From assembly GCA_963780265.1 (NCBI GenBank), contig CAWABQ010000018.1:2558-66557 (forward strand): a DNA stretch of 64,000 nt, written 5' to 3'. The notes below the pieces were generated by a model that made no database searches, had not been told where the DNA came from, and saw nothing but the letters and a program-made list of their open reading frames with translations. Shown in pieces: positions 1 through 20,838 of the stretch. The translations under genes and the position numbers were made by a program. Source of the DNA: Candidatus Bathyarchaeota archaeon. Lineage in GTDB: Archaea > Thermoproteota > Bathyarchaeia > 40CM-2-53-6. Each line of letters opens with the position of its first letter. The first letter of the stretch is position 1.

Positions 1-47
1 GGAACAATCACCTACGACATTAACCCGACGCCGTCGAACAAACCATC

Positions 48-218
48 ATGAACGCCGTAGACACCCTCCGATCTACTTACGATATTCACAACTTGCGGAA
101 GATGCTTGATGTCGACGCATTGCCCCTCGGGGCTTCGCTTCGAATCCCTGTCCTTACTCGAGAGGCCAGGGTTATCATGGATTTCACTTTTTGGACCCAC
201 CGGGAGCTGGCAACGTAG
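48..218 (+). CDS. Small phage protein (56 aa), hypothetical
   Basis: ATG-initiated ORF (MNAVDTLRSTYDIHNL...) read manually. Its TAG stop abuts the ATG of the next gene. Below the ORF-track size cut-off. Confidence 0.4.
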   Translation: MNAVDTLRSTYDIHNLRKMLDVDALPLGASLRIPVLTREARVIMDFTFWTHRELAT

Positions 219-440
219 ATGCATGAACTTCCCAAGGCGTTGAACGCCGACTGGGCGCCGTTGACCTGGCATTTCTATCAGGCCCAGGACGGAAAGCCGA
301 CGGTGTACATCAACGACGGATTCGACTTGCTCTCCTTGGCCAGACATATGATTGAATTTGATGGGACCGTGCGGCCAAGCGTACTCTGCACAACATGCGG
401 CTTCCACGATGACGTCAAGCTTCTAGGATGGGTTCCATAG
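219..440 (+). CDS. Phage protein, hypothetical (head-tail joining region by position)
   Basis: 73-aa ORF, translationally coupled on both sides (tagATG). Confidence 0.45.
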   Translation: MHELPKALNADWAPLTWHFYQAQDGKPTVYINDGFDLLSLARHMIEFDGTVRPSVLCTTCGFHDDVKLLGWVP

Positions 441-797
441 ATGCCTGGTTTCAGTATTCAGATCATATCGGACACGGTGACGGCTAAACTCATTGCGGCC
501 GCGCAGCTGATGGCGCAGGGTATCCAGGACGGGTTGGAGGCAGCTGGCGCGGATATGGAAGCCACCGCCAAGCAGATAGTCCCGGTGAGAACCGGTTTCC
601 TGCGAAGCACCATCTACCATCAAGTTGACCCCGTGGCCCTCAGCCTAGAAGTCGGCGCCGACGCTGACTACGCGTTCTTCGTGGAGATGGGAACCAGGCG
701 GATGGCTGCGGAACCGTACATTCGGCCGGCCTTCGACGCCCACCAAGACCAACTCCTGCAAGCCTTGACCCTCGGCATCATGTCGGCCTTCCAGTAG
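441..797 (+). CDS. HK97 gp10-family tail completion / head-tail connector protein
   Basis: 118 aa. The ...AKQIVPVRTGFLRSTI...ADYAFFVEMGTRRMAAEPYIRPA pattern is typical of the HK97 gp10 family. Confidence 0.8.
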   Translation: MPGFSIQIISDTVTAKLIAAAQLMAQGIQDGLEAAGADMEATAKQIVPVRTGFLRSTIYHQVDPVALSLEVGADADYAFFVEMGTRRMAAEPYIRPAFDAHQDQLLQALTLGIMSAFQ

Positions 798-845
798 TTT
801 TCCTTGTCACAGTCTCATTGAGACCTGACGGAGCGTGAAAAATAT

Positions 846-1283
846 TTGCCAAAATACGATGGTGATGAGGTTGAAGTCCGCATAGGAATAAGCGCGGCCG
901 CCGCCACAGCCGCAACGCCCGTAACTAACCTGGAGAGCATCACATACAAAGCTGACCAAAGCGCCACAGAAGTGCCCGTAGGCATCGGCTCTCGAGCGAC
1001 AGAAGTCCATGAGAAACTCGTCAAGTACACCGGGGCAATTACCCGCTGGAACGATGAAGTCGCGACTGTATCTGGAGGCACGGGATCCCTAGCAACGGAC
1101 GTAGGCGCTTTCACAACAGCAGCGTTGACACCGCTCTACGTGGAAATCAAGAACAAGACGTCAGCTACGAAGATCCAGTTGGTCGGTTGCATAGGCCTCT
1201 ACTCAGAGGACCTCAAGAGCCCTGACGGGTTCCTGATGGAAACCTGGGACTTCAAGTTCTCCTCGATAACCAAGAGCCCATAG
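846..1283 (+). CDS. Putative major tail protein
   Basis: 145 aa with a TTG start. Sits between the gp10-like gene and the tail chaperone. Assigned by synteny only. Confidence 0.5.
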   Translation: MPKYDGDEVEVRIGISAAAATAATPVTNLESITYKADQSATEVPVGIGSRATEVHEKLVKYTGAITRWNDEVATVSGGTGSLATDVGAFTTAALTPLYVEIKNKTSATKIQLVGCIGLYSEDLKSPDGFLMETWDFKFSSITKSP

Positions 1284-1320
1284 GGCTTTTGTTAGCCCTT
1301 AAGATTGGAGAGATGGAGAT

Positions 1321-1635
1321 ATGGAGAAAAGTACCTTAGCGAAAGCAGACGCCAAGCCCCCCAACACTATTTCTTCCGGCGTAACTCAGCCTAGCGGTAG
1401 CGCCGACCTGAAATTCCTGGTCAGCTTCGGTGTTGTGATCAGCTGCCGGCTTGGCGACGTGGAACACATACGCAGCCTGATCCAGGGAGTGGGCGGTCGC
1501 ATCGTGTTCCAAACCGTGAGTAACGGTCCCCTCTTTCTGTTTCGTGCAGGTCAAGTGGAGAGGGCCCTGGCTGGTGATGTTTCCGCGCTTGCGGAAATTC
1601 ACAATAAGAAAACAAGAAGGAGTGAGAAGTTTTGA
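1321..1635 (+). CDS. Hypothetical phage protein
   Basis: 104-aa ORF co-oriented with the module. An antisense ORF of similar length exists, so coding is uncertain. Confidence 0.3.
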   Translation: MEKSTLAKADAKPPNTISSGVTQPSGSADLKFLVSFGVVISCRLGDVEHIRSLIQGVGGRIVFQTVSNGPLFLFRAGQVERALAGDVSALAEIHNKKTRRSEKF

Positions 1636-2003
1636 GTGAGAAAAGGCAAGCAATCCTGGAAGCTCGAGAACAGAACAGAGAACTAGCGAAACAAATCGAA
1701 CAGGGAACCAGCTACCATAAACCCGTCGAAATCAGAGGCAAAGACAACGAACTGCACACGTTCGAAGTCTTTCCTATGTCCGACGCAGACCTGGCAGAAC
1801 TCTTGGAGACTACGAACGTTGACCTGAAGGATATTGGCAACAGGGACAAGATGTTGACGAACGTAAAATTCCTTATGAAAGGTGCCGCCATCGTTACCGG
1901 CGTCCCCGACATCGCCAAGGCATTGATGCCCATGGAATCCCTGAAGTTGATTTCGAAAGGCTTCGAGCTCAGCGGCCTGACTGGGGGCCCAAAACCCGCC
2001 TAG
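1632..2003 (+). CDS. Tail assembly chaperone (lambda G-like)
   Basis: 123 aa and acidic, lying between the major tail and tape measure genes. A slippery heptamer sits 7 nt before its stop. Confidence 0.6.
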   Translation: MSEKRQAILEAREQNRELAKQIEQGTSYHKPVEIRGKDNELHTFEVFPMSDADLAELLETTNVDLKDIGNRDKMLTNVKFLMKGAAIVTGVPDIAKALMPMESLKLISKGFELSGLTGGPKPA

Positions 2004-2155
2004 GTGCATTCGCCCAGGGGTCCGTCTACTCGGCCCCCCTCGAAGTCCTGGTATCAGGGTTCGGTTATCGGCTAACGGACCGTATGGACGAGCTCACCCC
2101 ACTGCAGCGAAACTGGCTGCTACAAATTTTCAAGAAAGAACATTCGAGGAAGTGA
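1632..2155 (+). CDS. Predicted -1 frameshift fusion product (lambda GT-like)
   Basis: After the slip the reading is ...GGPK/TRLGAFAQGSVYSAPLEVLVSGFGYRLTDRMDELTPLQRNWLLQIFKKEHSRK, adding about 54 aa. Confidence 0.5.
1988..1994 (+). promoter_or_regulatory. Candidate -1 programmed ribosomal frameshift site C_CCA_AAA
   Basis: Matches X_XXY_YYZ in the zero frame of the chaperone gene. The -1 frame stays open from here to TGA at 2153-2155. Confidence 0.6.
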
Positions 2156-2183
2156 CCTGAATTGAGTACGAATAGAGATACTT

Positions 2184-2285
2184 GTGACCCAATTCGGCTA
2201 CAAACTCACCAATCGGGTAGAAGACCTCACTCCCTTGCTAAGGGCGTGGTTTCTGGAGATATTTGCCAAGCAACGCCGTAGTTAG
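2184..2285 (+). CDS. Small ORF paralogous to the frameshift extension
   Basis: GTG-initiated, 33 aa: VTQFGYKLTNRVEDLTPLLRAWFLEIFAKQRRS. About 16 of 30 residues match the extension peptide at 2060-2152. Confidence 0.35.
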   Translation: MTQFGYKLTNRVEDLTPLLRAWFLEIFAKQRRS

Positions 2286-2459
2286 TGCTTGCGAAGCAGA
2301 CGAGACTCGGACCGATAATCTCGCCTTATTCTGTAGAATTTCAATCGCTCGCTTCGCGTCGTTGTACTAATTCAAAGCTCTCTAGCTATCTCTGGGAACT
2401 CCTTCTGATGCTCATTTCACTTTTTGGGCACTGGAATCCTTGCGATTGTTGAATGCGCT

Positions 2460-3430
2460 CTAAAAATGCGTTTGGTCTTCGACTATCCAAGAATTCTGCC
2501 AGTTGATAGTATCACTTGCAGGAAGGGGAACCCAATTCGCGTGTAAACAATCAGTCGAGCCGCAATTAGCCGTCCAATAGCCGTAAGGAACTGTGTTAAA
2601 GGGATAAACCGGTTTGTACGGATCAAGGATTTCACCTGTCTTTCCACCCGCAGTACCTAGCTCTAAATGGACAACGATGCTTCTGGTATATCCTCTGTGT
2701 CCTGCTAATGCTACTGGTTGATATCTGGATACACTATCACCTATTCTCACAAGAACTTCTGAACTGTGAGCGAGGCCAATATCATATCCTAGAGTTGAAA
2801 TAATAACCCAGTTATCGGGTGTATCTGGGTAAGCTCTTGTTACAATTCCGGGCGCAAGGACGGAATAATATCACCTTCTTCCGCCAGAAAGTGGGTGCCG
2901 GAATCATTATCAACACTCTCGTCAGTGGCCCCGTTCCAGGCCAAAGTGGAGCCTTTACGAGGATCCCTGTCATAATAACCACCATGGTCAAGATCAATTC
3001 CTTTCTTCGGATAACTTAGAAATCCTTGCAGCAATCCAATGCTCATCTTAGGATTGTTTTCACCAACAGCAATATAGTAACCATGCATAATTCGTCTGAC
3101 TTCGTTAACGCTCTGGCACATGTAAGGGAATTCATCAGTAACTGGATACACAGAATAATTCCCTTTTGGAAGATCGACTTTGAAATCTCCAGACGAATCA
3201 GTAGTCGCTGTTGCAACAACCTTAGTTACGACAATAGCATCAGTAATTATGACCTGCGCGTTTTGAACTGGTGGCTCGCTGTCAGTATCATCCTGTATCC
3301 CGTTCCCTGCGGTTCCATACTGGCTAGTACCCCTGTCGAAAAAGAGCCTTCCTTCCTGCGTGTAAGTCTGCGGGGAAGTGGAGTAGGTTGCGTTTGAGGA
3401 CTCGGTAATCTCCTGGGTGAGGCTGGTCAT
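2460..3430 (-). pseudogene. Carboxypeptidase-regulatory-like plus M23 metallopeptidase, apparent frameshift near 2858-2864
   Basis: The upstream frame ends ...SGTHFLAEEGDIIPSLRPEL*. The next frame continues VLAPGIVTRAYPD...IGDSVSRYQPVALAGHRGYTRSIVVHLELG, an M23 HxH-type core. A 1-nt deletion would explain the break. Confidence 0.6.
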
Positions 3431-3705
3431 CTCCTGCCCCGGGTTGTATTCTGCGGATAAAGCGCATTCCTGATTGGCCCGCCATAAAGAAAATCAGCCA
3501 ATAACCCAGCAACTCCAACGGTTGCAATCAACCCCCCGATAACGAATTTTCTCCTTGTTGCTTGGAAATGAGTTAGCCCATTATTCTCTCCGCTGTAAAT
3601 CATTTCGACATTTTTCTTGATTGCGCTGTTCATTGAGTAAGGAGTGGTCAGCGGTTCGGATGCTTTTATTGCCAATCGGTTTATGAGCTCTCTTATGTCC
3701 TTCAT
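3427..3705 (-). CDS. Small membrane-anchored protein
   Basis: 92 aa with one TM segment (FVIGGLIATVGVAGLLADFL). ATGA overlap with the downstream peptidase ORF. Confidence 0.5.
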   Translation of the reverse strand: MKDIRELINRLAIKASEPLTTPYSMNSAIKKNVEMIYSGENNGLTHFQATRRKFVIGGLIATVGVAGLLADFLYGGPIRNALYPQNTTRGRR

Positions 3706-3947
3706 ACACTCACAGCTTGTTTTCAGCGTGATCTAGTCTGACCTGGGTCCCCACGCCAGAAGGAAACATCTCCAAGAAAGCAATAGTCCGAGTTGCATTT
3801 ACTCTTGTTGCTTTGCAAGAAGTTATGAAAACTGCGAAAGCCGTGAGAACTATCTTCTTCGTTTCTTATCCAAAGATTCTCACGGGTTCTGTACTCAACT
3901 CCTAATGGAATGACTGAGTTGAACTTCAAGTTTCTTGAAGTCCTGCT

Positions 3948-4822
3948 TCAATCACGGCTCTCTTCTCTTGTATAAGAATCCACGGGGCGATTTGATTGAG
4001 CGCCTCCACAACACGGTCCGCACAAAAGGCCGGATTTGTATTGATTCTCATGTTCCCACAGGCGAAGAATATGCCACTTGTTCGCCTTGAGGATCATGTC
4101 GTGTAGGACATCTCTAGAGCGCACATCTGGGCGATTATGCCAGTAGTCACCATCACAAAACACAGCCAGTTTCTTTTCAGGGAAGGCGATATCTGCCTGA
4201 CACCGATTCAGAACCGGATAATGCTTTGCAAAGACCAATCCCCGGTTTGTCAACTCAAACTGCATCGATCGCTCAATTCCCGTGTCCCTGGTCGGGAAGA
4301 TTTGACGCAGCCTCGCTTTCCGAATTTTCTCGCGTTTTCCTGCGAAACTTTGCGTCCCCGAAGTTTCTCGCGTGTTGACTGCGAAACATGACAGCCCCTC
4401 CTTGCTTCATGCAAAATATTCAGTCGCCGTTCGCGCTCTATCGGTGAGAGGCCCTTCCAGTATTCCTTGTGTTTCCGTGCAGCGTTCGCACGAATTGAAA
4501 GTAAGCGGCTGGTGTTCGCTACTCCAAGACAGTGTAGCGAACAATACTTCGGGCTTCGGGTTCCTGGGCGCCTTCGCCTGCTATCCGAAACGTGGAACGG
4601 TTTACCACATCGCATACATGCAAGAGTGACACCTGATTTGTTCCAAGGTATGCGCCCCCGTTTCTTCAAAGACGCAGAGGGGTATCTTTTCCCTGTATGA
4701 ATTGCAACCATATGTTGACGGTATTTAGAATCTCGCCAAACTTCTCTTTGTACTTCGGATCGCATGGCGCGGAAACTCTCGGGCATCTTCCGGTCTTTGT
4801 TCCATGGAACCTGATTGGACAT
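3948..4822 (-). pseudogene. Free-standing homing-endonuclease-like gene: NUMOD3-type repeats plus a Vsr/DUF559-like PD-(D/E)XK nuclease, split by a frameshift near 4310-4324
   Basis: The N-terminal ORF has VPWNKDRK, IPWNKSG and HVSQSTREKLRGRKVSQENARKFGK motifs. The C-terminal ORF has ADIAFPEKKLAVFCDGDYWH...WHILRLWEHE. The nuclease frame stays open upstream through the junction. Confidence 0.6.
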
Positions 4823-4965
4823 TGTTAGGGGAGTTACGATCGCTGGTTTACCTAAGAAAGCGATAGGTGGGTGAAAGTAACGGATTGTCTACGAATATCG
4901 GATCCATCGTATAGTAGCAGCAGCTACGCGAATTTGCGATCCAAGCTGTAGATGAAGCATCGGGT

Positions 4966-7222
4966 GTGATGGGGAAGATTTCTGCTGCCATGGGTTTAAT
5001 CGGTTCGGAGCTTGAGACACTCGGCCCAGGTTTCTCGCAACTTGGCCAGGTGATCCAGGGCTTTGCTGTCGGTGGCCCGGCCGGTGCGGCGATCGTAGGC
5101 CTCGGTGAAATCGCCAAAGGCATACAGGACAGTGTTGCAGCTGCGGCTGGCCTGCAGACAGTGTGGACTGACCTGCAGTCAACCATGCATTTGACCGGCG
5201 CCGCATGGGACGCGATGAAAACCCAGATTGACGCTGTCGTTGAATCCCTTCGAACAACCACAACATTCAGCGACACGCAACTGATTGGAGCCTTTCAGCG
5301 ATTATCAACTTATGGCATGACAGCCGCCCAGTCCATGGATGCGTTGAGGGCTGCAACTGAGCTGCGGCAGCGAAGCATATTGACCTTGAAACTGCAGCGA
5401 CCGCCCTCGGCAAAGCGTTTCAAGGAAATGATATGCTGCTTGTCAGGTACGGTGTTGACGTTGCTACCGTAGCCAAGCAAGTATCGTTGGGTACTGAAGC
5501 CATCAAAGAAATGGGCGTTAATCTTGAGAGCGCTGGGACAACGCAGCTTACAGCCTTCTCTGCTGCAGTGACAGCGGCAGGCTTGAGTCTTACAGATGCA
5601 AACGGGAAGTTGCTTACTCACGCAGCAGTTCTGAAAGAGATAACGGCCGCGTGGAAGGCTGGCTCTATTGACGCTGATCAACTGTCAACGATTGTAGGCG
5701 CCCTCGGCATCAACTTCCAAGGCAGCAAAGCCCTGGCTATGGATTACGCGGCTGTGCTTGGCCAGGTGAACACGCAATATGGAGGCGCCGCCCAAGCCCA
5801 GGCGACCACCTACGCCGGCCTCCAGGAGCGCCTAGCGAATGCGTTCCAGGTGGTGAGTGAGAAAATTGGCACCATGCTTCTCCCAGCCCTGACTTCTATC
5901 CTGGAAGCGCTCCTTCCAGTCATTGATGGTTTCAGCAGGGGCGTCGACGCGATACAATCATGGGTTGCAGCTGTAGGGAAAATCCCTGCTGTGCAAGGCG
6001 CGGTTAGTGCCTTCCAGGGCGTTTGGGACGGCCTCACAAAATCCTTCGACAATGCCTGGAACTCGGTGAAAGGAGACTTCATGCCGGCACTGCAGGACCT
6101 GCAGAACGCTTTCAACGAACTCGCTACCGCCCTGCAGCCCGTATGGGATGCTCTCAACGAACTATGGCATGCGGTCACTGGCAGCACTGGCGACTTCAAC
6201 ATATTCCAAGCGCTTCTCGAAGGCGTCGTGTTCGTAATCAAAGCCCTCGCAGAAGGCATCCGCCTAGTCATCCCCATTGTCAGTTTGTTCGCGCAAGGTT
6301 TCAAACTCCTCGCCGACATTATTGGGCCACCCATCACGTGGATCATGAACACGCTAGGCGCGTCTTCAAATGGTTGACCGATGGATTCCAGGCGTTCTAC
6401 GATTGGCTTGTCGGCCACTCCCTCTGGCAAGACCTGTGGGCTAAGGTTTGGGATGTGGTAGACAGCGCTATCATCGGCCTGGTCAGCAGACTTACAGGCG
6501 GACTGTTCGATTGGTTGAAAAGCAGTTTCACCGACACCGTTAGCGCCATTCAAGGCAGTTGGAACAGCATCGTTAGCGCCGTTACGAACTCACTCGATAC
6601 AATTTCCACCAAGATTCGAGGACAGTTCCCTGAGCTGTCCAAAATCATCACCGGCGGAACAGAGATACTGAAAGGCAACTGGATGCAGGGAATAAGTGAC
6701 ATTGCAGCCGCGCTTCCAGGAGCCTGGGCGGAAATCACTTCAGCAATCTCGAAAGCCCTAAGCGACCTAAACACGGTGCTTGCAAATGCGTGGACTCAGA
6801 TGCAAAGCGCCGCTCAGTCAGCTTTCAATGAGCTGCAAGGCATCGTGAACAACGCTCTCTCAGGTATAGCTGCAGCCGCAAACGCTCTCTGGAACAGTTT
6901 AACGCATCACTCCATTTGGCCGGACATGATGGCTGAACTTGTAGCTCAAACAAAGGCCGGCTTGGACGCAGTTCAAGGTGAATTTCAGGATGCCTTCGCA
7001 TCTCCTACCGGGATTATTCAGACCGTGCAGGCAGGCGGTCAAGCAACAGCTGCCGCGAGTAGCCCAGCCGCAGCGTCTGCAACCCCTGGAAGCCTGGATA
7101 CAAGCCAGGCGATCACCTTACCCATCAACGTGTACCTGGACGGCCAGCAGATCCAAGCCTTCCTCGAGAAGCGCATCGTGGCAACCATGGTGAGAGATGC
7201 GAGTAGGAGTAAGCGAGCATAG
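4966..7222 (+). pseudogene. Tail tape measure protein, read in three frames (shifts near 5362 and 6360)
   Basis: ORFs 4966-5472, 5361-6377 and about 6360-7222 join into a continuous helical Ala/Gly-rich protein (...ALRAATEL/AAAAKHIDLETAATALGKAFQGN... and ...PPITWIMNTLGA/FKWLTDGFQAFYDWL...). Confidence 0.75.
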
Positions 7223-9934
7223 ATGCCGGGCAACCTAGCCAAAACATTATCCGGCCTGATCGTCGCGGAGACCTTCGAATCATACCCGAACGGCTGGACC
7301 TTCAGCCAATCCGGCCAAGTCTCAGGGCATGGCTGCTTGGCGACTGCCGGCGTCGGCTCACCAAGAACCGGCCATGCCGGCAACAACATGTGGCTTGAAA
7401 TCCTTGGCGCCATCGGCGACACTCCCGATGAAGGTTGGGTGAAAGACCAATGGGCACAACTCGTCAAGACCCTAAACCTCGGTTCAGGCGCAGGACGAGT
7501 TGCCAAGGTCTTTCGCGGCTGCGGTTTCAGTGAACCCGTCTACGACGACTTCCTAGGCTCAGCGTACAACGGAGGCTTATGGACGCTTGACAATGGCAGT
7601 GCACCAACAGTCGCAAGCAGCATCGCGACCTTCGCTGTTGGCAGCACCGCACATACCAGGCTGGTGTCAACGACTAGCTACACGAGAGCCTCCAGCAACA
7701 ACCAAGGCTCTATGACGTGGGCTTTCCGAATCCGCAACACCGGAGGCGCTACGGCTAGGCTTTTCGCCGTTTGGAAAGGAAACGACAGCGACGGAATATT
7801 TCTACAGTTCACGTCCATGGCAGTTCAGCTATGCACGAAAAGTGGAGGAAGTCTAGTCCTTGGCGCCGGCATCGCCGTGGATTTAACAGTATTCCACACA
7901 ATCACAGTCACGTGGACCGCGGTCCCTGGTGGTGGCTTCAATGTTGAGATGTTTATCGACGGCGCATCGGCCGACATACATGCAACGGACATTGGCACCG
8001 GTTCAGACCCCATGGCGCTTGGCGCGCATTACAGCAGCACCGACTATGCTGGTTACGATGTGGACTGGTTGGGTGAAAGCGTCCAACCAGGTTGCGCAAA
8101 GGTGTCCTTCATCGTTGGCACGATGACATGGTTCAATGAGAACGCGGGACTTGACGGCCGCGACCCCCACAGCCTCAAAGATAACTCGTACTACCCCATC
8201 CCCGTCGCTTCGATGGCAACGTGGCAAGCGATCACGGACACTGGGAATCAGACCGCCACGTTCAAAGTTCTAAATGCAAACGTCAGGGGTGTTGGGTGGC
8301 CGTATGATGCGTTTCGTAGAAACATGTACTTCGACATTGACGATTTCCTGGTGATGGCAGGCCTCCTTCTCACGGTCAACGCGCTGTCGGGTGGCCAGAA
8401 GGTTGAACTGTACGATAGCGGTGGATCCCTGCGTCAAACTGCCACATGTCCCGTAACGAACACTCCGATTACTTTTGATTTGAGCGGCCTGATACCTTCA
8501 GCGTTCGGCTTCTATGGTTACATGAAAGTGTACGACACAGATGGCATCACCCTTCTCTACACGACACCGACCATGTACAGCTTCGGTGGTGATGGATGGA
8601 CATGGGTTGGTGCAGCGTCGCAAATAGTTCTCGCCGCGGATAATCCGAAAATCTATCGCACCGGCGCCGGCTTGAGCCCTGGGACCGCTACGGTCACCGC
8701 TACGATGACGAATGTGGCGACAGGCCTCCCCGTTTCCGGCGAGACTTTGGCATGGTCATGCTTCCTTGGTTCAGTGAGTCCCGCATCGAGCGTCACGGAT
8801 GCAAACGGCCATGCGTCGACCGTCTTCACTCCCTCGGCAGCTGCTGGCCTGGGAGGTGTTCGATGCGACTTTGCCGGCGACAGTAATTATTCCCCAGGCT
8901 TCGGGATCCAACTCATTGACGTCTACTACGCCCTGCCAGCAGGGGATGCAACGAAGGACTTTCAAGTCTTCGTGCAGGGACAGGAAATGCCGTACAACAG
9001 CGGCAACTACAAGCTTTCTTCAGACTTCAAACCTCAAACCTTCACCGTGACCGGGCCCCTCGGCCCATTGACGGGATTCTGGTGGGCTGTTGAAATCTAC
9101 CGGCTAGGCGTGAAGGAGTTCCAGGGTCGAATCCTGACCCGGAGGCGAGTAAGCGGTGCCAGCGCCCAACTCACCATCACCGGCGTCGACGAAACTATCA
9201 TGCTGCAGAGGCGTGTGGCTAACCGGAATTACCTGGACGACCCGAAATACATCATCCAGGACCTTCTCACGCGCTACCCGACCGGAATTGTGGCCGGCAC
9301 GATTTCATTATTCGCTAATACGATCAGCCTCCCCATAACCTACGACAACGTGTACGATGCGCTGGTTCAAATCGCTAATGCGACCGGTTGGATCATCCGA
9401 CGGAACATAACGAACACTCTTGATTTCGCCCCGTCCTTTGGGTCCCTGAAGAGTATCAGCATCACCGTGGGCGGCAGCAGCGGTGTCACCGCGGACCATA
9501 CTGAAGACGCGACGCAACTAGATACGAAGGTTGTTGTAATAGGCAACCCCTCAACCCTGGTCTCCATCTTCGAGGACACGGCCAGCGAGTTGATCTACGG
9601 CTACATTGAGGAGGTCTTCATCGTGAAGACCATCACCGCCCAGGGCACCCTGGACCTGAACGCCCAAACCACCCTAGCCAACCGAAAAGTACCCAGGGAC
9701 ACAATCATCCTGGACTGGATAGACAGCCTGGCCACAGGATCCTACGCGCCTGGGGATTCTCTCACCGTCACCGACGCTGACGCCGGTCTCTCAGGAACCT
9801 ACACGGTCTATGGCATCACACGGGACCTCGCGGACGCATACCTCGCAAAACTCGAGCTCACCACCCGCCTGGTAACAATCGCGGATGCCCTGCAGAGCAT
9901 TCGGTCCGTCGTGAAAGACCTGGGGGTCCTCTAA
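7223..9934 (+). CDS. Large tail tip / baseplate (anti-receptor-like) protein with LamG-like and Ig-like (Big_1-type) domains
   Basis: 903-aa intact ORF starting directly after the tape measure stop (tagATG). An Ig-like segment reads ATVTATMTNVATGLPVSGETLAWS...TDANGHASTVFTP. The C-terminal part resembles siphovirus minor structural/tail proteins. Confidence 0.65.
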   Translation: MPGNLAKTLSGLIVAETFESYPNGWTFSQSGQVSGHGCLATAGVGSPRTGHAGNNMWLEILGAIGDTPDEGWVKDQWAQLVKTLNLGSGAGRVAKVFRGCGFSEPVYDDFLGSAYNGGLWTLDNGSAPTVASSIATFAVGSTAHTRLVSTTSYTRASSNNQGSMTWAFRIRNTGGATARLFAVWKGNDSDGIFLQFTSMAVQLCTKSGGSLVLGAGIAVDLTVFHTITVTWTAVPGGGFNVEMFIDGASADIHATDIGTGSDPMALGAHYSSTDYAGYDVDWLGESVQPGCAKVSFIVGTMTWFNENAGLDGRDPHSLKDNSYYPIPVASMATWQAITDTGNQTATFKVLNANVRGVGWPYDAFRRNMYFDIDDFLVMAGLLLTVNALSGGQKVELYDSGGSLRQTATCPVTNTPITFDLSGLIPSAFGFYGYMKVYDTDGITLLYTTPTMYSFGGDGWTWVGAASQIVLAADNPKIYRTGAGLSPGTATVTATMTNVATGLPVSGETLAWSCFLGSVSPASSVTDANGHASTVFTPSAAAGLGGVRCDFAGDSNYSPGFGIQLIDVYYALPAGDATKDFQVFVQGQEMPYNSGNYKLSSDFKPQTFTVTGPLGPLTGFWWAVEIYRLGVKEFQGRILTRRRVSGASAQLTITGVDETIMLQRRVANRNYLDDPKYIIQDLLTRYPTGIVAGTISLFANTISLPITYDNVYDALVQIANATGWIIRRNITNTLDFAPSFGSLKSISITVGGSSGVTADHTEDATQLDTKVVVIGNPSTLVSIFEDTASELIYGYIEEVFIVKTITAQGTLDLNAQTTLANRKVPRDTIILDWIDSLATGSYAPGDSLTVTDADAGLSGTYTVYGITRDLADAYLAKLELTTRLVTIADALQSIRSVVKDLGVL

Positions 9935-10010
9935 TGCAAATCCAAGGCATCACGCTTCCACAAGTACAGTTCATTCGCTGAGTTTTCTTTCCAACTTAGC
10001 ACCTTCACGA

Positions 10011-10628
10011 TTGCAAAGGGTGGTGAATGAAAAATTGGTAACAATACTAGGTGCAGGTACGGTAGTTGGTCAACGTGCCCGTTGGGATGGCACAAGTTGG
10101 GTTCCAGTCACACAAGGTCTAGACCTAATCGCAGAATCCGTTGACCCAACCGCTGCAACAAGCCTCACACTTTCAGGGCTGAACGGTGATGCAGACATAC
10201 TCTACGAAGTGATGGGGCGAATCCTAAAGGATGCTTCGACCGGCCATGTTACTTTCCAACTTAACGCAGATGCGACAGCGGGCAATCACGCTTGGGCAAA
10301 CGTCATCAATTACTCAGGGACAATTACAGGCGGAGCCTCGGTGTCAGATACACAAATTTACTATGAGGACGGTACAAGCAACCAGCGACTAGTGGCTAGC
10401 GACCATTTAGATTTCTTTTTCCGATTGTTCGCAAAATCGGGCGTACAAAGACGACTTCTCGGTAGAGCAACTGCTAGAATCTCTAACGGCAGCCTACTTC
10501 TCGGATATGACTTCATAGGAGAATGGAAAAATACAAGCACCAATTTGACTTCAATCAAAATCATATCCGGCGCAGGCAACATCGGCGGCTTAGGCAGCTT
10601 CATTCGAGCCTACAGAATCCTCGACTGA
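10011..10628 (+). CDS. Hypothetical virion (fibre-like) protein
   Basis: 205-aa ORF co-oriented with the tail module. Confidence 0.45.
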   Translation: MQRVVNEKLVTILGAGTVVGQRARWDGTSWVPVTQGLDLIAESVDPTAATSLTLSGLNGDADILYEVMGRILKDASTGHVTFQLNADATAGNHAWANVINYSGTITGGASVSDTQIYYEDGTSNQRLVASDHLDFFFRLFAKSGVQRRLLGRATARISNGSLLLGYDFIGEWKNTSTNLTSIKIISGAGNIGGLGSFIRAYRILD

Positions 10629-10637
10629 TGATTCAGA

Positions 10638-11230
10638 ATGACGACCTACTTCGACAATGCATACTTTGACCCTGCTTACTTCACATCAACCGTCGGCATC
10701 TCCGTTCAAGGTATACCACTTCCACCGTGGAACTCATCCGTCGCATAGCCAGCCTCCTACTTGGCTTGCAACCCATACCAAGCCCAAGCGCCCAGTCCGT
10801 AACCTACTTCGGCAATATGTATTTTGACCCTGCCTACTTCGCAGCAGTCGCAGCCGTTCCTCATTCCATATCTCGGTACACCCGGCAGTTGGCCACGAAT
10901 GGTGATGCCTGGGAAATTGGAGGTCTCACCGACCACGTAACCCTGGAGAAGCTCTTCGCGCTCCCAGACAACGGTACCGTCTGGGTTACGGATTCTGACC
11001 GCGGCTGCTTCCATGCCATCCTCGAAGTTGAAGCAGCCTGGACCACGGAGGATGTCGTGGAGGTCGCGGCATTTGTTCCTTACTTCGGCAATGTGTATTT
11101 TGCCGCTACCTACTTCGCAACTGTCGGTATCGCTGCAAGTGATTCTGGGAGGAGACAGTACATGGTTCGGTTGAGTGTGACTGAGAATGTGTTTGACCCT
11201 TCAGTGTTCGACCCGTACGCTTACGAATAG
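10638..11230 (+). CDS. YF-repeat protein: ORFs 10638-10748 and 10727-11230, possibly one gene
   Basis: Three copies of the motif YF-x-N-x-YF-x-x-x-YF (TYFDNAYFDPAYF, TYFGNMYFDPAYF, PYFGNVYFAATYF). The first copy lies in a 36-aa ORF overlapping the second ORF by 22 nt in another frame. Confidence 0.45.
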
Positions 11231-11989
11231 GTGAAAGCTATGGTTCTCTTTGGTTCCACAACTCTACCGCACGTTCTGTCGATGCAGCGGCAGCAGCCGC
11301 GCATCAAGCAGGAAGTCCCGTTACCAGGTAGAAGTTTCGCTTACCGGAAAGACCGCGGCGGCATCGGCGCACAGTTCGTTCTCAAAGGCGCCATTCGTCC
11401 CAGCAGCCAGGCAACCAGGGACCTGATCGCAGGCCTGGCCGACGGGGCCGCTAGGATTCTGGACCTGCAGGAGGCCACGTTGACGCTCCTGGAGAGCTGC
11501 TTACGATATCAAACCGGGCCCACGTGGACAGATTACACGGCAGAATCCCAAAGCACCATCGGAACACCTTTCACTCTCCTGGGTGCCACGACGGACTACG
11601 GGTACTTTGGCCACCGGGAGAAATGCAATAACCTCATCTTCGCGTTCGCAGCGGTAGGTACCTATGTGATCCTCCTTTGGGAGTACAGCAAGGGATCCGG
11701 CGCTTGGGGGACTCTCACAGTGACGGATGGGACCAGTGGTCTGCACCAGAACGGTGCCGTCACCTTCGCCCCACCCAGCGACTGGAAGCAGGACACGGTC
11801 AACGGTATTGCGAACAAGTTTTGGATTCGAGTCTCGGCGGCCAGCGTTACAACGGCGGCAACCATCTACAACATTCAACTGAACAACGTCTTCCTCTGCA
11901 TCATGCTGAACCCTAGCTTCGACGAAACCGCTGACGACTACAACGAAATCCCTTATACACTCACACTGCTCCAACAGGAGAATCCGTGA
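11231..11989 (+). CDS. Hypothetical virion protein
   Basis: 252-aa ORF with a GTG start abutting the upstream stop. Confidence 0.5.
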   Translation: MKAMVLFGSTTLPHVLSMQRQQPRIKQEVPLPGRSFAYRKDRGGIGAQFVLKGAIRPSSQATRDLIAGLADGAARILDLQEATLTLLESCLRYQTGPTWTDYTAESQSTIGTPFTLLGATTDYGYFGHREKCNNLIFAFAAVGTYVILLWEYSKGSGAWGTLTVTDGTSGLHQNGAVTFAPPSDWKQDTVNGIANKFWIRVSAASVTTAATIYNIQLNNVFLCIMLNPSFDETADDYNEIPYTLTLLQQENP

Positions 11990-12291
11990 GTCGAATGCCT
12001 AAGATGGTGTGGGGACAAAGCCTCGAAGACGGTATTGTTCCTATCGAACTTGCAGATGACGACAAGGTTGCGGAGTGCGATTGTGTTGTCAGCAAAACCA
12101 AGAAGGGCTTGAGGATAACCAAACTCTGCGTCAATGCCACGCTTGCCTATTACACAACTCTTGCCATGTCTCTGAGTAAGAAATCGACGTCCGACTTCAC
12201 TGAGAAAGAAACAAAGGAATACCGAGAACAGTGGGACTGGATCAACGAGCGTGGGCGGCAAGTTATAGTTGGGTATTGTGAAGAAGCCTAG
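11986..12291 (+). CDS. Hypothetical phage protein
   Basis: 101 aa with a 4-nt overlap on the upstream gene. Confidence 0.45.
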   Translation: MSRMPKMVWGQSLEDGIVPIELADDDKVAECDCVVSKTKKGLRITKLCVNATLAYYTTLAMSLSKKSTSDFTEKETKEYREQWDWINERGRQVIVGYCEEA

Positions 12292-12487
12292 CGGGACGAT
12301 CACCCGGGACGACTACAACAACATGGTCGACTTCCTAGGCGGTCCCTCAGGCCTTACAACCCTGTTCGATGATGACCTTCACATGACTGTCGCCAGCAAG
12401 GGCCTAATCGTCATGACGCCGGACGGTACTAAGCGGTACCGCATCAGGGTCGACAATTCCGGCAACCTAGTAACTGAATTGGCCTAG
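12269..12487 (+). CDS. Hypothetical phage protein
   Basis: 72 aa. Last co-oriented ORF of the block. Confidence 0.4.
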   Translation: MGIVKKPSGTITRDDYNNMVDFLGGPSGLTTLFDDDLHMTVASKGLIVMTPDGTKRYRIRVDNSGNLVTELA

Positions 12488-12707
12488 GTTCTCTCTTTCG
12501 GCAGCTTTCTCAGCCTAGCGGTAGCCCTAGGTTTCCTTTTTGGCCGATCTAAGCTCTAATACGCGGTCGTGGAGCATTGCTGCTTTGCTGTATGTTGGGA
12601 GAAGGGTGCGCTCCTAGGCTGGATGTCTTCGTACGGGGAACTCGGAAAATGACTAAATTCAAGGACGCATACAAGCACCCATTTACGCTAGTTCAGGCTG
12701 AGTAACC

Positions 12708-13310
12708 GTGCCGGAGAACAGTGTCGAAGCTCGAGAAAGCCTTCCTGCTGGGGGTAATGCTGTACGGTACGTCGCGTACGCAGTTTTGGCGGTAGCGGTC
12801 ATGGCATTCGTTATCGTTTTTCTTGCCACGCCAGGCTTCTCACAAGCGTTAGGGATTAATGATGTTACAACGACCGTGACGCAAACAACCACGGTAGTAA
12901 CGACTATGTCTGTGGAGGCTACTCCGTCGGCTACAGTGTCCATAGAAACAACGCCCGCAACGACGCTTACCATATCGGTAACCCTTACGGATTCCACGGG
13001 AGAAATGGTAGATACGACGGTAACCACTGTAGCAGCTTTGCCTGTCACTGTCGAGACCACCGAGATAACGATAACTCCAGATACTACTACGACTGTGACT
13101 CCGACCGAGACTTCCACTACGACTGTGACTCCAACTACGAGTGCTACTACGACTGTGACTCCGACTGAGACTGCTTCTACTACTACTTTGACTTCAACCG
13201 AGACCTCGACTACGACTGTGACTCCAACTACGACTGCTTCTACTACGACTGCGACGGCGAGCGTGACCTTCGGCTCGTCACCGCAGAACGTACTGTTCAC
13301 AGTCTACTGA
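12708..13310 (+). CDS. Thr-rich membrane-anchored repeat protein
   Basis: 200 aa with an N-terminal TM segment (YVAYAVLAVAVMAFVIVFLATPGF), then TTTVTPTETS-type repeats. The mirror Val-rich antisense ORF is judged an artefact. Confidence 0.5.
   Translation: MPENSVEARESLPAGGNAVRYVAYAVLAVAVMAFVIVFLATPGFSQALGINDVTTTVTQTTTVVTTMSVEATPSATVSIETTPATTLTISVTLTDSTGEMVDTTVTTVAALPVTVETTEITITPDTTTTVTPTETSTTTVTPTTSATTTVTPTETASTTTLTSTETSTTTVTPTTTASTTTATASVTFGSSPQNVLFTVY
13086..13225 (+). repeat. Coding tandem repeat, 30-nt period
   Basis: The exact 17-mer ACTACGACTGTGACTCC occurs at 13086, 13116, 13146 and 13209. Confidence 0.85.
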
Positions 13311-13565
13311 TACTCTGGCAGTCAACGGCGCCAATTCACGGGTCAACTAAGGGATGCGGCGCGCCGTTAACATTTCTGGGGTCTGCTCCGAGCACGATGA
13401 CAACCCAGCGTAAGTTTCTCTACTCCCACTCTGTAGCTGCTTAGAGGCGAGCTAGGCAGTAGGCTGTTAACCCGTTGTGCGGGTGTCGTTTGAAAATGAC
13501 ATAGGTTTGAGGGTTTTTGCGGGTAGGTTTATCTTCCGTGTTTCCAGCACGTCTACTGATTTCGG

Positions 13566-14114
13566 TTGAGACTTCGTTCCCTAATTACAGTATGCATCTT
13601 CTTGGCGGCGTTGGCAGGTACCTTAAGTTCAAGTCCCCCCGCCTCAGCTAACAGCCTCCAGGGAACAACGAGCATCAGCTTCACCATTACAACCACAACG
13701 AATTATCCAGTCCAGACGGGTGGGGTGTTGCAGGTGAATTTCAACTCGGTTCAGGTTGACACTGTTCCGCCCCAAGCTTACTCGTTCGGGGTTCAAGCCA
13801 AAACCTTTCCAGGGCTTTGGATAACGAGGCTGCACTGGGAGTTCGGCGACGGGGCCTTCTTGGATGTTCCTTACTGCTGCCAAAGCACAGTCAGCGAGGT
13901 ACAAGACCACGCCTACTCTCAACCCGGCTCATACACAGTGGTCGTCGTAGCATACGACAATGCTGGCAACTTCGGCGACGTTTTCGTCACCGTGAATTGG
14001 GTAACTCCCATCCCAGAATACCCGAACTACGGCACGCCACTCTTCATCGCCCTTTTCACAGTCCTAACCGCGGCCGCCTTCGCCAAGCGCCGAGTAACGT
14101 CCCGCTCTCGTTAA
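13566..14114 (+). CDS. Secreted PKD-domain protein with a PEF-CTERM-like C-terminal anchor
   Basis: Signal peptide present. PKD-like WEFGDGAFLD...HAYSQPGSYTVVVVAYDNAGN. The C-terminus reads IPEYPNYGTPLFIALFTVLTAAAFAKRR. Confidence 0.7.
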   Translation: MRLRSLITVCIFLAALAGTLSSSPPASANSLQGTTSISFTITTTTNYPVQTGGVLQVNFNSVQVDTVPPQAYSFGVQAKTFPGLWITRLHWEFGDGAFLDVPYCCQSTVSEVQDHAYSQPGSYTVVVVAYDNAGNFGDVFVTVNWVTPIPEYPNYGTPLFIALFTVLTAAAFAKRRVTSRSR

Positions 14115-14245
14115 TCCACAAGAATCCTCGAACGCCACCAAATGTTGGCGTGCGATGGCACTGTTTGGCACCACCCCATGATGGGTGGACCACCCTAGTC
14201 TATGCCACTAGAACACAACAGAATCCCTTGTTCGGTTTAAAAAGG

Positions 14246-14257
14246 GCTTATATATTG
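14246..14257 (+). promoter_or_regulatory. Candidate TATA box for tbp
   Basis: The AT-rich gcttatatattg lies about 40-50 nt upstream of the GTG start. Position-based only. Confidence 0.3.
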
Positions 14258-14295
14258 AGGGGAGTTACGAGTGCCCAATTCCCCCCGTATATAAG

Positions 14296-14898
14296 GTGGC
14301 TAATCTGCCGGTAAAGAAGGCTTTCATCAACATCGAAAACGTCGTTGCCTCAGCGACCCTTCACCAGAATATCGACCTAAATTCAATCGTTCGCGTTTTC
14401 CCCGGCGTCGAATACCGCCCCGAACAATTCCCAGGCCTCGTGTACCGCCTTAAGAAACCGAAAACGGCGACACTAATCTTCAGTTCAGGGAAGATGGTTT
14501 GCACGGGTGCGAAGTCTGAGCGGCAAGCTCGGAAGGCTGTCATGAAAGTTGTTGATGAACTGAAGAGGAATGGCATCGTCATACTCGGTAAACCGGAAAT
14601 TCAAATCCAAAACATTGTTGCGTCAGCCGGCCTCGGCGGAGCCATCGACCTAGAAAAGTCCACGTATTCGCTTAAACGGACAATGTATGAGCCCGAGCAG
14701 TTTCCTGGCCTAATCTACAGGATGGACGATCCGAAAGTTGTCATACTCCTATTCGCCAGCGGAAAACTTGTCTGCACTGGAGCGAAGAAAGAGACTGAAG
14801 TTCACAGAGCCGTTGCGAAACTTCAAGGAACCCTTGAGGAAAAAGTTCTCATAGCATACGAAGCAGCCCCGGCCCCGGCTGCGACGCCAAGCCCGTAG
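14296..14898 (+). CDS. tbp: TATA-box binding protein
   Basis: Two TBP repeats (NIVASATL...EQFPGLVYRL...SGKMVCTGAKS and NIVASAGL...EQFPGLIYRM...SGKLVCTGAKK). Confidence 0.95.
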   Translation: MANLPVKKAFINIENVVASATLHQNIDLNSIVRVFPGVEYRPEQFPGLVYRLKKPKTATLIFSSGKMVCTGAKSERQARKAVMKVVDELKRNGIVILGKPEIQIQNIVASAGLGGAIDLEKSTYSLKRTMYEPEQFPGLIYRMDDPKVVILLFASGKLVCTGAKKETEVHRAVAKLQGTLEEKVLIAYEAAPAPAATPSP

Positions 14899-14947
14899 GC
14901 GAAAGCGAAAAATAAGCAAGGTCCGCCCTAGCTTCTCCTGGTTAGCA

Positions 14948-15211
14948 ATGGTCGAGAAGCGAAAGATCGGGGCTTACGTTCTGATTAAGATCGCCCCAGG
15001 CAAGTCTAGAATCATCACCGAGCAGATATCCAAGATTGAGGGCGTTAAGACGGCGCACCCTGTTACCGGGATGTTCGATATCATCGCGTACATTGAAGCT
15101 GTTGACATTAACAACCTCACTGGAACCGTGAGGGCAAGAATACAGACATTAGAAGGCGTGCTGCGAACTCACACTGCGATAGTAGGCGAACTCGTCACTA
15201 CAGGTGACTGA
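14948..15211 (+). CDS. Stand-alone Lrp/AsnC-type ligand-binding (RAM) domain protein
   Basis: 87 aa. The pattern AYVLIKIAPGK...IEGVKTAHPVTGMFDIIAYIEA fits. Confidence 0.7.
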   Translation: MVEKRKIGAYVLIKIAPGKSRIITEQISKIEGVKTAHPVTGMFDIIAYIEAVDINNLTGTVRARIQTLEGVLRTHTAIVGELVTTGD

Positions 15212-15261
15212 GGGCCGAAACACGCTTAGATGTTCGAAGAAGGTATCCGCGAGGATATGCT

Positions 15262-15807
15262 CTACCTGCGTTTCCCGGTAGCAGATTTCGATTCGTTGTA
15301 TTCAACAGCAATGATTAACACAACCAGCAGAATTATGAGAGTAACACCTAGGGGCCCGCGTAGTTCTAGGCTTATCAGCCCAACGTAAGGGATCTTCACA
15401 ACGTATACTCCGATGAGATTCTCAGCGGGTACCTTCCAGCCATCCTGAATCTCATTATGGTCGCCCTTCGTCTGAAAGAAAAGCGAGCCTCCATCGTTGA
15501 CCACGGCAACAACACGATGCACTATCGGCATATCATATTCGTACGGGCTGTGGAAGATGATTATCGTCCCCACGCTGATGGCCTGTGGGTCTACGCCACG
15601 AACAATAATGATATCTCCAACGTTTAGGACGGGCACCATGCTTCCCGACGAGACAACCATCAACGGGGAATCTGTATGAAGCGCCAAACGCATAACCTCA
15701 ACCCCACCATACGTTGCCGCGAACAGTATGATAATGAGTATCAGGACGCGCACCATAGGATTCTTGAAAGCCCGGACGGCCTTCGAGACAGAGCTGTTCT
15801 TAGACAA
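15262..15807 (-). CDS. Signal peptidase I (archaeal S26B/Sec11-type)
   Basis: SGSMVPVLNVGDIIIVRG, PIVHRVV and TKGDHN motifs with TM segments at both ends. Confidence 0.85.
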   Translation of the reverse strand: MSKNSSVSKAVRAFKNPMVRVLILIIILFAATYGGVEVMRLALHTDSPLMVVSSGSMVPVLNVGDIIIVRGVDPQAISVGTIIIFHSPYEYDMPIVHRVVAVVNDGGSLFFQTKGDHNEIQDGWKVPAENLIGVYVVKIPYVGLISLELRGPLGVTLIILLVVLIIAVEYNESKSATGKRR

Positions 15808-15872
15808 GTTTAGGTCGGAGCCTCGAAATCACTCATCATTGATATTGCTTTCGAATTCGCCACGAGACCGAT

Positions 15873-16217
15873 TCAGGGTTTTGATGGCAACGGCTGCCCT
15901 TGCATGAGTCGAGCAAGTTCGAGCGTGGCACGTTCCCCTGCTTCCAAAAAGGTGATTCCGCCTTCAGTGATTTTGTAGATTCTGCGGCCGCGGCCCTTCT
16001 CAGATTCCCATTCCCCTTGAATGTAACCATCCTCTTCAAGTGAATGCAGCAACGGATACAATGTTCCGGCGCTCAAGTACACCCGATACTTGTCCCGGAT
16101 TGCAATGTTCACTTCGTAACCCCATTGAGGCTTCGCGCGGAGGAGCCTAAGGATTATTAAGTCAAGGTTGTTTTTCACAACCCGCTCACGCCAATCCTTC
16201 TCCATGTTCCTTATCAA
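15873..16217 (-). CDS. PadR-family transcriptional regulator
   Basis: WGYEVNIAIRD...SAGTLYPLLHSLEEDGYIQGEWE...RRIYKITEGG. Confidence 0.85.
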   Translation of the reverse strand: MIRNMEKDWRERVVKNNLDLIILRLLRAKPQWGYEVNIAIRDKYRVYLSAGTLYPLLHSLEEDGYIQGEWESEKGRGRRIYKITEGGITFLEAGERATLELARLMQGQPLPSKP

Positions 16218-16346
16218 ACGCTAAGCCTCAATGACTCACACGCATGCAGGCGCTTATGGGATGCACCTACTGCGTTCATGCCCCGAATTATAAGTTCCCC
16301 TCGGTATTTGGCCGTAGACCAAATGGTCAACAGAGGATACTCGAAA

Positions 16347-16574
16347 TTATTCGATTATTGTGACTTGGCTTCCTTGGCCGAGGCCAAGTGGTTGCTCTTC
16401 GAATTTAACCACGAGAAAATCAGTCTCGACCCCAATGACTTTTCCCTTGAAATCCTTGGCCTTCGAGAATTGGAAACTTGCATCATGGCCGACGAAACGG
16501 TCCAAGTCGGTTTCGGAAACTGTTATCCATGCCTTGTTCTCTGCGTCGTCGAATGTGATAACCACGCCTATCAA
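16347..16574 (-). CDS. Hypothetical small protein
   Basis: 75 aa with balanced composition. A competing plus-strand ORF (16278-16589) looks less protein-like. Confidence 0.35.
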   Translation of the reverse strand: MIGVVITFDDAENKAWITVSETDLDRFVGHDASFQFSKAKDFKGKVIGVETDFLVVKFEEQPLGLGQGSQVTIIE

Positions 16575-20784: not shown

Positions 20785-20838
20785 ACTCGACTGCTATCGA
20801 GAAGCCTGCTCGCCGGCGAGTCCTACCCCTCCGGAAGA

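Follow-up and report, generated by a model that had tools for sequence, protein, structure and literature searches.

Head-tailed viruses of the archaeal class Bathyarchaeia have been described as 'Fuxiviridae' and 'Kunpengviridae', with a total of 56 viral genomes (Duan et al., 2024, PMC10848311), eight complete tailed proviruses of the class, BATPV1 and BATPV2 among them, have been reported (PMC11705971), and larger surveys of such viruses and proviruses have followed (PMC13573593). Here, we analysed a 64,000-nucleotide (nt) stretch of a Candidatus Bathyarchaeota contig (hereafter the window) and read its positions 1 to ~12,530, on the plus strand, as the late half, devoted to tail morphogenesis, of a temperate and siphovirus-like virus of the Caudoviricetes integrated in a Bathyarchaeia chromosome, a reading to which we give a probability of roughly 0.85. 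The copy in the window is degenerate, and elements of its kind have already been published for the class. It shares with the published tailed viruses and proviruses the host class, an HK97-type capsid (here in relatives), a tail module built around a tape measure protein (TMP) and chromosomal integration. The published viruses come from hot springs or vents, whereas the habitat of the element described here is peat or soil. A search of the GenBank phage collection gave no match to Bathyarchaeia virus records, in a collection for which the presence of the Fuxiviridae and Kunpengviridae genomes is not confirmed.

In the tail operon of siphoviruses such as lambda and HK97, the genes for tail completion and the tail tube are followed by those for the chaperones G and GT (the latter arising at an X XXY YYZ heptamer and carrying a short T extension), the TMP and the tip, and a sheath gene is missing. 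The -1 frameshift that yields gpG and gpGT is said to span bacterial and archaeal viruses. The window matches this arrangement in gene order, in an X XXY YYZ heptamer near the end of G and in having no sheath gene. It differs in that only the gp10 and TMP genes can be recognised by sequence, that an additional gene of 104 amino acids (aa) precedes G, and that the hub forms the C terminus of the tip protein, with no separate Dit gene recognised.

The same operon carries an endonuclease gene. Free-standing homing endonucleases of phages include those encoded by the seg and mob genes of T4, and the Vsr-fold 'EDxHD' type is represented by I-Bth0305I. Like these, the window gene has a Vsr/MTES_1575 domain after a basic N-terminal region, NUMOD3 in distant homologues, an intergenic location and a sporadic distribution. 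It sits in neither an intron nor an intein, is frameshifted and carries 1.8 kb of unrelated cargo. The window insert is flanked by an imperfect 14-bp direct repeat, which classical homing is not known to produce.

Results

A tail module whose relatives carry head genes

Genes run co-oriented on the plus strand across positions 1-12,530, and a gp10-like protein, G/GT, the TMP and a hub/tip protein were all recognised, through family matches, slippery-site analysis and a fold search. A protein search with the 903-aa tip protein returned 12 homologues, all metagenomic (11 full-length at 40-46% identity, the twelfth at 52% identity over 63% of the query), and their contigs have the same gene order as the window module. 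The closest relatives, the fetched loci L001 and L007, both lie on one JGI contig of 347,927 bp. L001 is colinear with the window at 76-79% nucleotide identity (blastn) and 77-90% amino-acid identity for most genes (tblastn).

Upstream of the module, L007 encodes a large terminase (phrog_2, 1e-26), a portal, an aspartyl-protease-like protein, a 558-aa protein and an HK97-type major capsid protein (phrog_1650, 4e-9), and the same head-to-tail order is found in L003 and L004. To the right of the L001 element stand host genes for SecY, adenylate kinase and ribosomal protein L15. Because of these upstream head genes and the SecY/L15-type host flank, the relatives can be regarded as complete tailed proviruses inside archaeal chromosomes, and since the module of L001 and L007 lies directly downstream of terminase, portal and capsid, a tailocin- or PLTS-type reading of the family is disfavoured. 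The original prediction, that a tailed virus has integrated in an archaeal chromosome and that its tail half lies in the window, gains support from these two loci. Related elements are embedded in fetched contigs of 145-348 kb, and members of the capsid cluster are labelled 'phage major capsid protein [Candidatus Bathyarchaeia archaeon]' at NCBI, on contigs of up to 1.8 Mb. These labels favour the host assignment and speak against a chimeric contig. The leftmost part of L007 as fetched is still conserved. In the GenBank phage collection, the tip protein has no match and the sole match of the L007 capsid, at 27% identity, is a Methanomicrobiales-associated virus; given that no close relative exists among these records, the lineage may be a separate family.

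The window opens within a head-tail connector gene (3-218, plus strand), the 3' part of a homologue of the 149-aa gene at L001 5276-5725, with 85% identity over residues 87-147 at window 27-209 (tblastn). As this gene follows the capsid gene in relatives, the element continues to the left of the window. At about nt 24, the sequence after GACATTAAC lacks 31 nt that L001 and L011 have (pairwise alignments), and both candidate frames contain stops (21-23 and 49-51). These alignments point to a probable frameshifting deletion of 31 nt, a tentative call because only 24 nt upstream are visible. At the other end, the last gene stops at 12,487, where the block had previously been taken to end, but homology runs 45 nt further, to ~12,530. 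This conserved 3' end of the element (12488-12533, plus strand), delimited by a three-way alignment, a terminator scan and a blastn end point at 12528, contains a terminator-like hairpin (12512-12533) followed by a T run, and homology to relatives ceases there. No tRNA and no Rfam family was found in window 1-16,000, which includes the right end of the element.

From the connector to the chaperones

The first complete gene is a conserved virion-module gene of 73 aa (219-440, plus strand), with 86% amino-acid identity to L001 5726-5947, a ratio of nonsynonymous to synonymous substitution rates (dN/dS) of 0.12 and no family match in Pfam or PHROG. It is followed by the HK97 gp10-like tail-completion or Neck1 protein of 118 aa (441-797, plus strand), which matches PF04883 at 3.1e-6, above the cut-off, and phrog_5 'tail completion' at 2.8e-20, and is 81% identical to L001. 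The next open reading frame (ORF), of 145 aa (846-1283, plus strand), is a putative tail tube protein by its position between the tail-completion gene and the chaperones. It is kept in L001 (77%), L003 and L098, and one homologue matches phrog_290 'minor tail protein' at 2e-5. The window protein itself has no match in Pfam, PHROG or PDB, profile searches of PDB and PHROG with its family were uninformative, and its single-sequence AlphaFold2 (AF2) model reached a pLDDT of 42, too poor for a fold search. Besides this ORF, only the conserved 104-aa gene (1321-1635, plus strand; 85% identity to L001 6841-7155) lies between the tail-completion gene and the chaperones, and no sheath family was matched there.

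Chaperone G, of 123 aa (1632-2003, plus strand), is assigned by its place upstream of the TMP and is 77% identical to L001 7152-7526. The -1 slippery heptamer C CCA AAA and the T extension that together would give the GT fusion occupy 1988-2155 on the plus strand: the heptamer (CCCAAAA) lies at 1988-1994, the G ORF ends 9 nt beyond it, and the extension runs for ~50 codons in the -1 frame to a stop at 2153-2155. The heptamer recurs at the equivalent position of L001 (7511) and of L003 (7662). Conservation extends to the peptide of the T extension, which includes SVYSAPLEVLVSGFGYRL in the window and L001 and SVFSAQLEILVTGYGYRL in L003; the window/L001 form reads SVYSAPLE[V/I]LVSGFGYRL, and the extension also matches L098 at 45% identity. 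With a TMP preceded by -1-frameshift chaperones and no sheath gene, the module is of the siphovirus type.

This is what the original prediction had proposed, and the elements it named were found at or near the places it gave them: the gp10-like gene at 441-797 was confirmed by PF04883 and phrog_5, and a chaperone with a conserved slippery site is present, but the site lies at the end of the 123-aa ORF and not at the junction of the 104-aa and 123-aa genes, probably the place intended. A slippery site at that junction was rejected, as the -1 frame is open for only ~3 codons; a GGAG-type ribosome-binding site and the overlap of the 104-aa gene's stop with the TTG start of the next gene (TTGA) explain the junction.

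The tip protein

The 903-aa tail tip protein (7223-9934, plus strand) is assigned from Big_1, Prophage_tail and phrog_400 matches and from a fold search. Its layout comprises a conserved N terminus, LamG/CBM-like and Ig-like (Big_1) domains and a C-terminal hub of the gp27/Mu gp44 type. The Big_1 (residues 488-540) and Prophage_tail (783-892) matches are weak, and phrog_400 'tail protein' covers residues 623-880. An AF2 model from 13 sequences reached a pLDDT of 61.5, being good only over residues 370-650 and poor over 658-824. Foldseek matched this model to hubs (3d37, 3cdd, 1wru), to 9h4p_BD from the tail of Haloferax tailed virus 1 (HFTV1), and to CBM40, LamG and intimin folds. The best structural matches were thus baseplate hubs, those of Mu gp44, MuSo2, Neisseria prophage tail proteins and the HFTV1 tail. 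The HFTV1 tail tip (PDB 9h4p) and the Mu gp44-type hubs (1wru, 3cdd, 3d37) match the C-terminal third at E values of 1e-7 to 1e-5, with a sequence identity of 12-16% and low TM-scores, the latter because the model is multi-domain and poorly confident in the hub region. The Big_1 match and the modelled fold support the earlier suggestion of a tip protein with LamG and Ig-like domains.

A tape measure in three frames and a scrambled distal region

The TMP gene of the window is a pseudogene of ~750 codons (4966-7222, plus strand), as judged from tblastn with the L001 TMP and from PHROG TMP families. The intact 767-aa L001 protein maps in three frames, at 4885-5424, 5364-6362 and 6344-7216 (tblastn), and single-base deletions at ~5364 and ~6363 separate them. 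The corresponding ORFs (4966-5472, 5433-6377 and 6023-7222) overlap and all match PHROG TMP families at 1e-5 to 1e-11; the first usable start is preceded by a 21-nt insert (~4911-4931) that contains TAGTAG. Compared pairwise with L001, every gene has a dN/dS of 0.12-0.30, and so do the three TMP pieces (0.14-0.24), which contain no further stops. These values and the absence of additional stops suggest that any inactivation was recent.

Downstream of the tip gene, a remnant at 9934-9981 (plus strand; tblastn) retains the first 15 codons of a homologue of the L001 101-aa gene, at 73% identity over residues 1-15, and then stops (translation MQIQGITLPQVQFIR*). A 205-aa ORF (10011-10628, plus strand) follows, for which no tblastn or blastp match was found in L001-L099 and PHROG matches were weak only; as a counterpart of the relatives' 177-199-aa genes it was rejected for lack of similarity. 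It ends in a double stop, followed by an in-frame remnant of the YFDNAYFDPAYF motif (10647-10692). The next ORF, of 167 aa (10727-11230, plus strand), is a fusion, in which the body of a 101-aa-type gene is joined to the final ~55 codons of the gene that, in relatives, stands before the 248-aa gene. In blastp, its residues 1-113 match the L001 101-aa protein at 55%, residues 112-166 match residues 206-261 of the L001 262-aa protein at 52%, and residues 140-166 match the C terminus of the L004 620-aa protein at 78%. The 5' end of its 101-aa-type part is frameshifted, with a GTG start, and the window contains two copies of this gene's 5' end, the 15-codon stub after the tip gene and the frameshifted second copy. 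In all relatives, one or two large genes (362-644 aa) separate the tip protein from the 248-aa gene, whereas the window has none; with tblastn, the L001 199-aa and 504-aa genes and most of the 262-aa gene were found nowhere in the window.

Conservation resumes with a distal tail protein of 252 aa (11231-11989, plus strand; 89% to the L001 248-aa protein, 68% to L004 and 52% to L003; dN/dS 0.14). In L001, the 248-aa and 72-aa genes abut. Here, a ~280-bp stretch absent from relatives intervenes and holds a 101-aa ORF (11986-12291, plus strand), which has no homologue in L001-L099. The module closes with a conserved gene of 72 aa (12269-12487, plus strand), 61-74% identical to L001, L003 and L004.

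The original prediction had called the module decayed and probably defective, with a TMP in three frames and a foreign insertion as the signs. The L001 alignment and the PHROG matches confirm the split TMP, and the decay reaches further than was noted, to missing fibre genes, gene remnants and a probable frameshift in the first gene, all of which support the view that the element is defective. The insertion does exist, at 2175-4897 with a GC content of 47%, but it lies outside the TMP ORF and is by itself no sign of decay, because a cassette of the homing-endonuclease type occurs at this site in other viruses as well.

A 46-nt repeat also occurs in this region, in three copies (10647-10692, 10805-10850 and 11081-11126) that are 78-87% identical to a reference copy. 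The repeats encode a YFGNxYFDPAYF-type motif at junctions of distal tail genes, and they are plausible recombination points for an exchange of fibre cassettes or for the deletion seen here.

An endonuclease cassette at the chaperone-TMP junction

The 2.7-kb insertion (2175-4897) has its genes on the minus strand, a GC content of 47% against 54-55% in the flanks, and no counterpart in L001-L005. In blastn, window 25-2166 corresponds to L001 5532-7699 and window 4951-7309 to L001 7740-10087. The left copy of the imperfect 14-bp direct repeat, ATTGAGTACGAATA, lies at 2161-2174 (repeat search family D9; no strand assigned), the second, ATTGTCTACGAATA, at 4884-4897, spaced 2723 nt from the first, and both align to a single L001 site, ATTGAGCGTGAACA, at the TMP start. 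Since the insertion sits after the GT stop (2153-2155) and before the TMP start, it is intergenic, and an interruption of the TMP was rejected.

The largest feature of the insertion is a homing-endonuclease-like gene of the Vsr/MTES_1575/DUF559 type (3948-4822, minus strand), which matches PF18741 at 4.5e-10, above the cut-off, and Vsr at 4e-5. Its ORF is not intact: a frameshift at ~4340-4349 splits it into ORFs of 190 aa and 105 aa, and tblastn places the N part at 4786-4340 (frame -1) and the C part at 4349-4047 (frame -3). The frameshift falls inside an imperfect tandem repeat of 38-39 nt (families D1, D3 and D5). The homologues P0175-P0177 are single proteins of 263-273 aa that span both halves, and a CDGDYWH motif is conserved among homologues. 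In L098 (8001-8924), as in the window, the endonuclease gene is antisense and directly separates the GT extension from the TMP start, and in L099 (4242-4853) it lies antisense immediately upstream of the TMP, with the end of GT unmapped there. The tail modules of L098 and L099 are diverged (gp10 35-50% identical), and the gene is absent from L001-L005. Because homologues recur at the same junction in diverged modules and are missing from five others, the gene behaves like a homing endonuclease gene, and its sporadic presence at one conserved intergenic site makes a free-standing gene of this kind probable.

The other 1.8 kb of the insertion is cargo, made up of a 196-aa ORF and three small ORFs. 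The 196-aa ORF (2840-3430, minus strand) has a CarboxypepD_reg or prealbumin-like domain (PF13620 at 6e-7, below the cut-off; SdrD_B at 1e-5) and no NCBIfam match of note. An origin by translocation from the 504-aa fibre gene of relatives was rejected, as the two show no similarity. Apart from the endonuclease, no ORF of the insertion has a homologue in any other fetched provirus.

Host and right junction

Beyond the element, the window encodes a TATA-binding protein (TBP) at 14296-14898 and, further on, a signal peptidase, a radical-SAM enzyme and a geranylgeranyl reductase (from 14.3 kb). A search with the window TBP retrieved 79 loci from species-representative genomes, and the best matches, 95-97% identical, come from Bathyarchaeia or Bathyarchaeota metagenome-assembled genomes (MAGs) of peat (SPRUCE) and Danish soils. 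Window 13,492-21,886 and 28,594-30,000 align at 82-87% nucleotide identity with Bathyarchaeia SPRUCE 232 (locus L017), the synteny over 13,492-21,886 being at 82%, and L016 aligns with the host region much as L017 does. TBP, geranylgeranyl reductase and the synteny with Bathyarchaeia MAGs bear out the archaeal nature of the flanking genes, and, judged from these sequence matches, the host is a soil or peat archaeon of the Bathyarchaeia. To this extent the host lineage matters, as had been anticipated, but it adds less novelty, because head-tailed viruses and proviruses of the class are already published.

Neither L016 nor L017 contains a counterpart of window 1-13,491. The two loci are syntenic further left except for a variable stretch just before TBP, which is the spot where the window element ends; an empty site in related genomes is thus seen for the right side only. 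GC content is continuous across the junction at 12.5-13.5 kb. Wherever window 13.5-31 kb aligns with L017, each host orthologue recovered forms one unbroken segment without frameshifts, and the assembly is therefore not generally prone to indels.

Between the element and the syntenic host DNA lies a ~1-kb gap (12,531-13,491) with neither provirus homology nor host synteny. Within it, a 200-aa ORF (12708-13310) combines a hydrophobic segment at the N terminus with long repeats rich in Thr.

Discussion

In an intact relative, tail assembly would begin with the connector and tail-completion proteins. The small tube protein would then polymerise around a tape measure of ~750 aa held by the chaperones G and GT, the latter made by -1 slippage on CCCAAAA, and a 900-aa hub/tip protein with lectin-like and Ig-like domains would, together with fibres, close the tail and bind the host. 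The window copy would no longer be capable of this, with its TMP cut by two frameshifts, its putative fibre genes deleted or scrambled and its first gene probably frameshifted. The 2.7-kb cassette would have entered the site between GT and TMP, brought by the Vsr-fold homing-type endonuclease, whose gene later decayed.

Several points weigh against reading the block as a decayed provirus. Because the window opens inside the connector gene, it does not include this copy's head genes, integrase or att sites; homology searches with the relatives' genes found no capsid, portal or terminase gene in the 64 kb, and no member of the capsid cluster could be traced to the window's own contig of 82,637 bp. 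A scan of genome contigs with the gp10-like protein turned up no relative, and an exact 60-mer search of viral contigs gave no match. The sole tube-protein candidate is putative, assigned by position only, and the hub region of the tip-protein model is of low confidence. The open TMP pieces with their dN/dS of 0.14-0.24 fit an assembly artefact equally well, and consensus errors, in a region that varies among strains, could account for the single-base deletions. One may therefore ask whether the provirus is intact and inducible, its frameshifts and rearrangements being assembly or consensus artefacts or the normal variation of host-range cassettes. The stop-free TMP segments under purifying selection and the intactness of other tail genes would fit, as would a distal gene content that differs among all relatives, 46-nt repeats that could drive cassette exchange, and the presence of the endonuclease cassette at the GT/TMP site of other, apparently intact modules. 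We nevertheless consider an intact provirus unlikely: at least five independent lesions fall within 12.5 kb while the comparison with L017 shows no broken host gene, cassette exchange leaves the 15-codon stub and the 5'-frameshifted second copy unexplained, and no fibre-sized gene is left.

That neither the window nor anything linked to its contig contains a head gene would also suit a domesticated tail-only element, be it a tailocin-like particle or a PLTS-type cluster. However, the connector gene at the window's edge follows the capsid gene in all relatives, and the closest of these are complete head-plus-tail elements at different chromosomal sites, with head and packaging genes. There is no sheath gene, and since TMP and fibres are broken in the window copy, the tail cluster is not maintained as a functioning machine would be; we regard this explanation as very improbable. 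Less credible still is a chimeric contig, in which a free viral contig would have been mis-joined to a fragment of a Bathyarchaeia chromosome. It could draw on the 1-kb stretch at 12,531-13,491 that matches neither virus nor host, but related elements lie within long contigs that NCBI attributes to Bathyarchaeia, GC content is continuous over the junction, and the syntenic genomes vary at exactly the same spot. We thus favour a decayed provirus whose lesions are probably true mutations and which would have entered the chromosome by integration.

The element does not establish a new category, given that Bathyarchaeia tailed proviruses have been published since 2024 and that NCBI already labels related capsid genes as phage capsid. 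It adds a well-anchored tailed provirus of Bathyarchaeia, an abundant uncultured class of soils, peat and sediments, and homologous capsid genes are widespread in metagenomes, several of them NCBI-attributed to Bathyarchaeia MAGs. It also shows that the G/GT frameshift and the tape-measure logic of bacterial siphophages are conserved in a Bathyarchaeia virus lineage, and it captures a prophage in decay together with a selfish endonuclease gene that would target one site of a tail operon. What goes beyond the routine is the recurrent endonuclease site and the two-frame terminase of the relatives. We make the tentative proposal, for which the odds are somewhat below even, that a family of free-standing, Vsr-fold homing endonucleases is specialised for the GT-chaperone/TMP junction of archaeal (Bathyarchaeia) siphoviruses and that the element represents an undescribed family-level lineage of tailed viruses of peat and soil Bathyarchaeia, with a consistently two-frame terminase. 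If so, the window would show the end of this endonuclease family's life cycle, invasion with cargo followed by decay.

Additional observations

The large terminase of relatives is consistently encoded in two pieces, an ATPase and a nuclease part, across 35-88% amino-acid identity: in L007 (3152-4069 and 4014-4595), L003 (1-556), L011 (552-1962), L096 (7391-8801) and L097 (6255-7641). The second piece is in the +1 frame, and in L008, L009 and L095 it follows a spacer of ~300 nt. Programmed frameshifting could explain this arrangement, as could a terminase that is truly split or a small element lying between the two parts. In L095 1-10000 (IMG/VR UViG 3300018018_000453), the head module is preceded by genes for two DNA methyltransferases (N6_N4 and Dam-type), for HTH_17 and DUF3800 proteins and for a protein of the AIPR abortive-infection type; this fetched part showed no integrase. 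A tRNA-Leu call inside L008 falls within a tail-protein gene and is likely a false positive.

In the host part of the window, a 6.7-kb block (21886-28594) is missing from the otherwise syntenic L016 and L017. It holds a 996-aa protein on the minus strand with an InlB B-repeat-like domain (24450-27440) and a 504-aa ORF without family match (22155-23669), and may be a second variable or inserted region. Further right, two paralogous ORFs (31327-32862 and 33294-34910) both match one 346-aa protein of L017 at 46-52% identity, over 31330-32334 and 33285-34316, which suggests a tandem duplication in the host lineage of the window.

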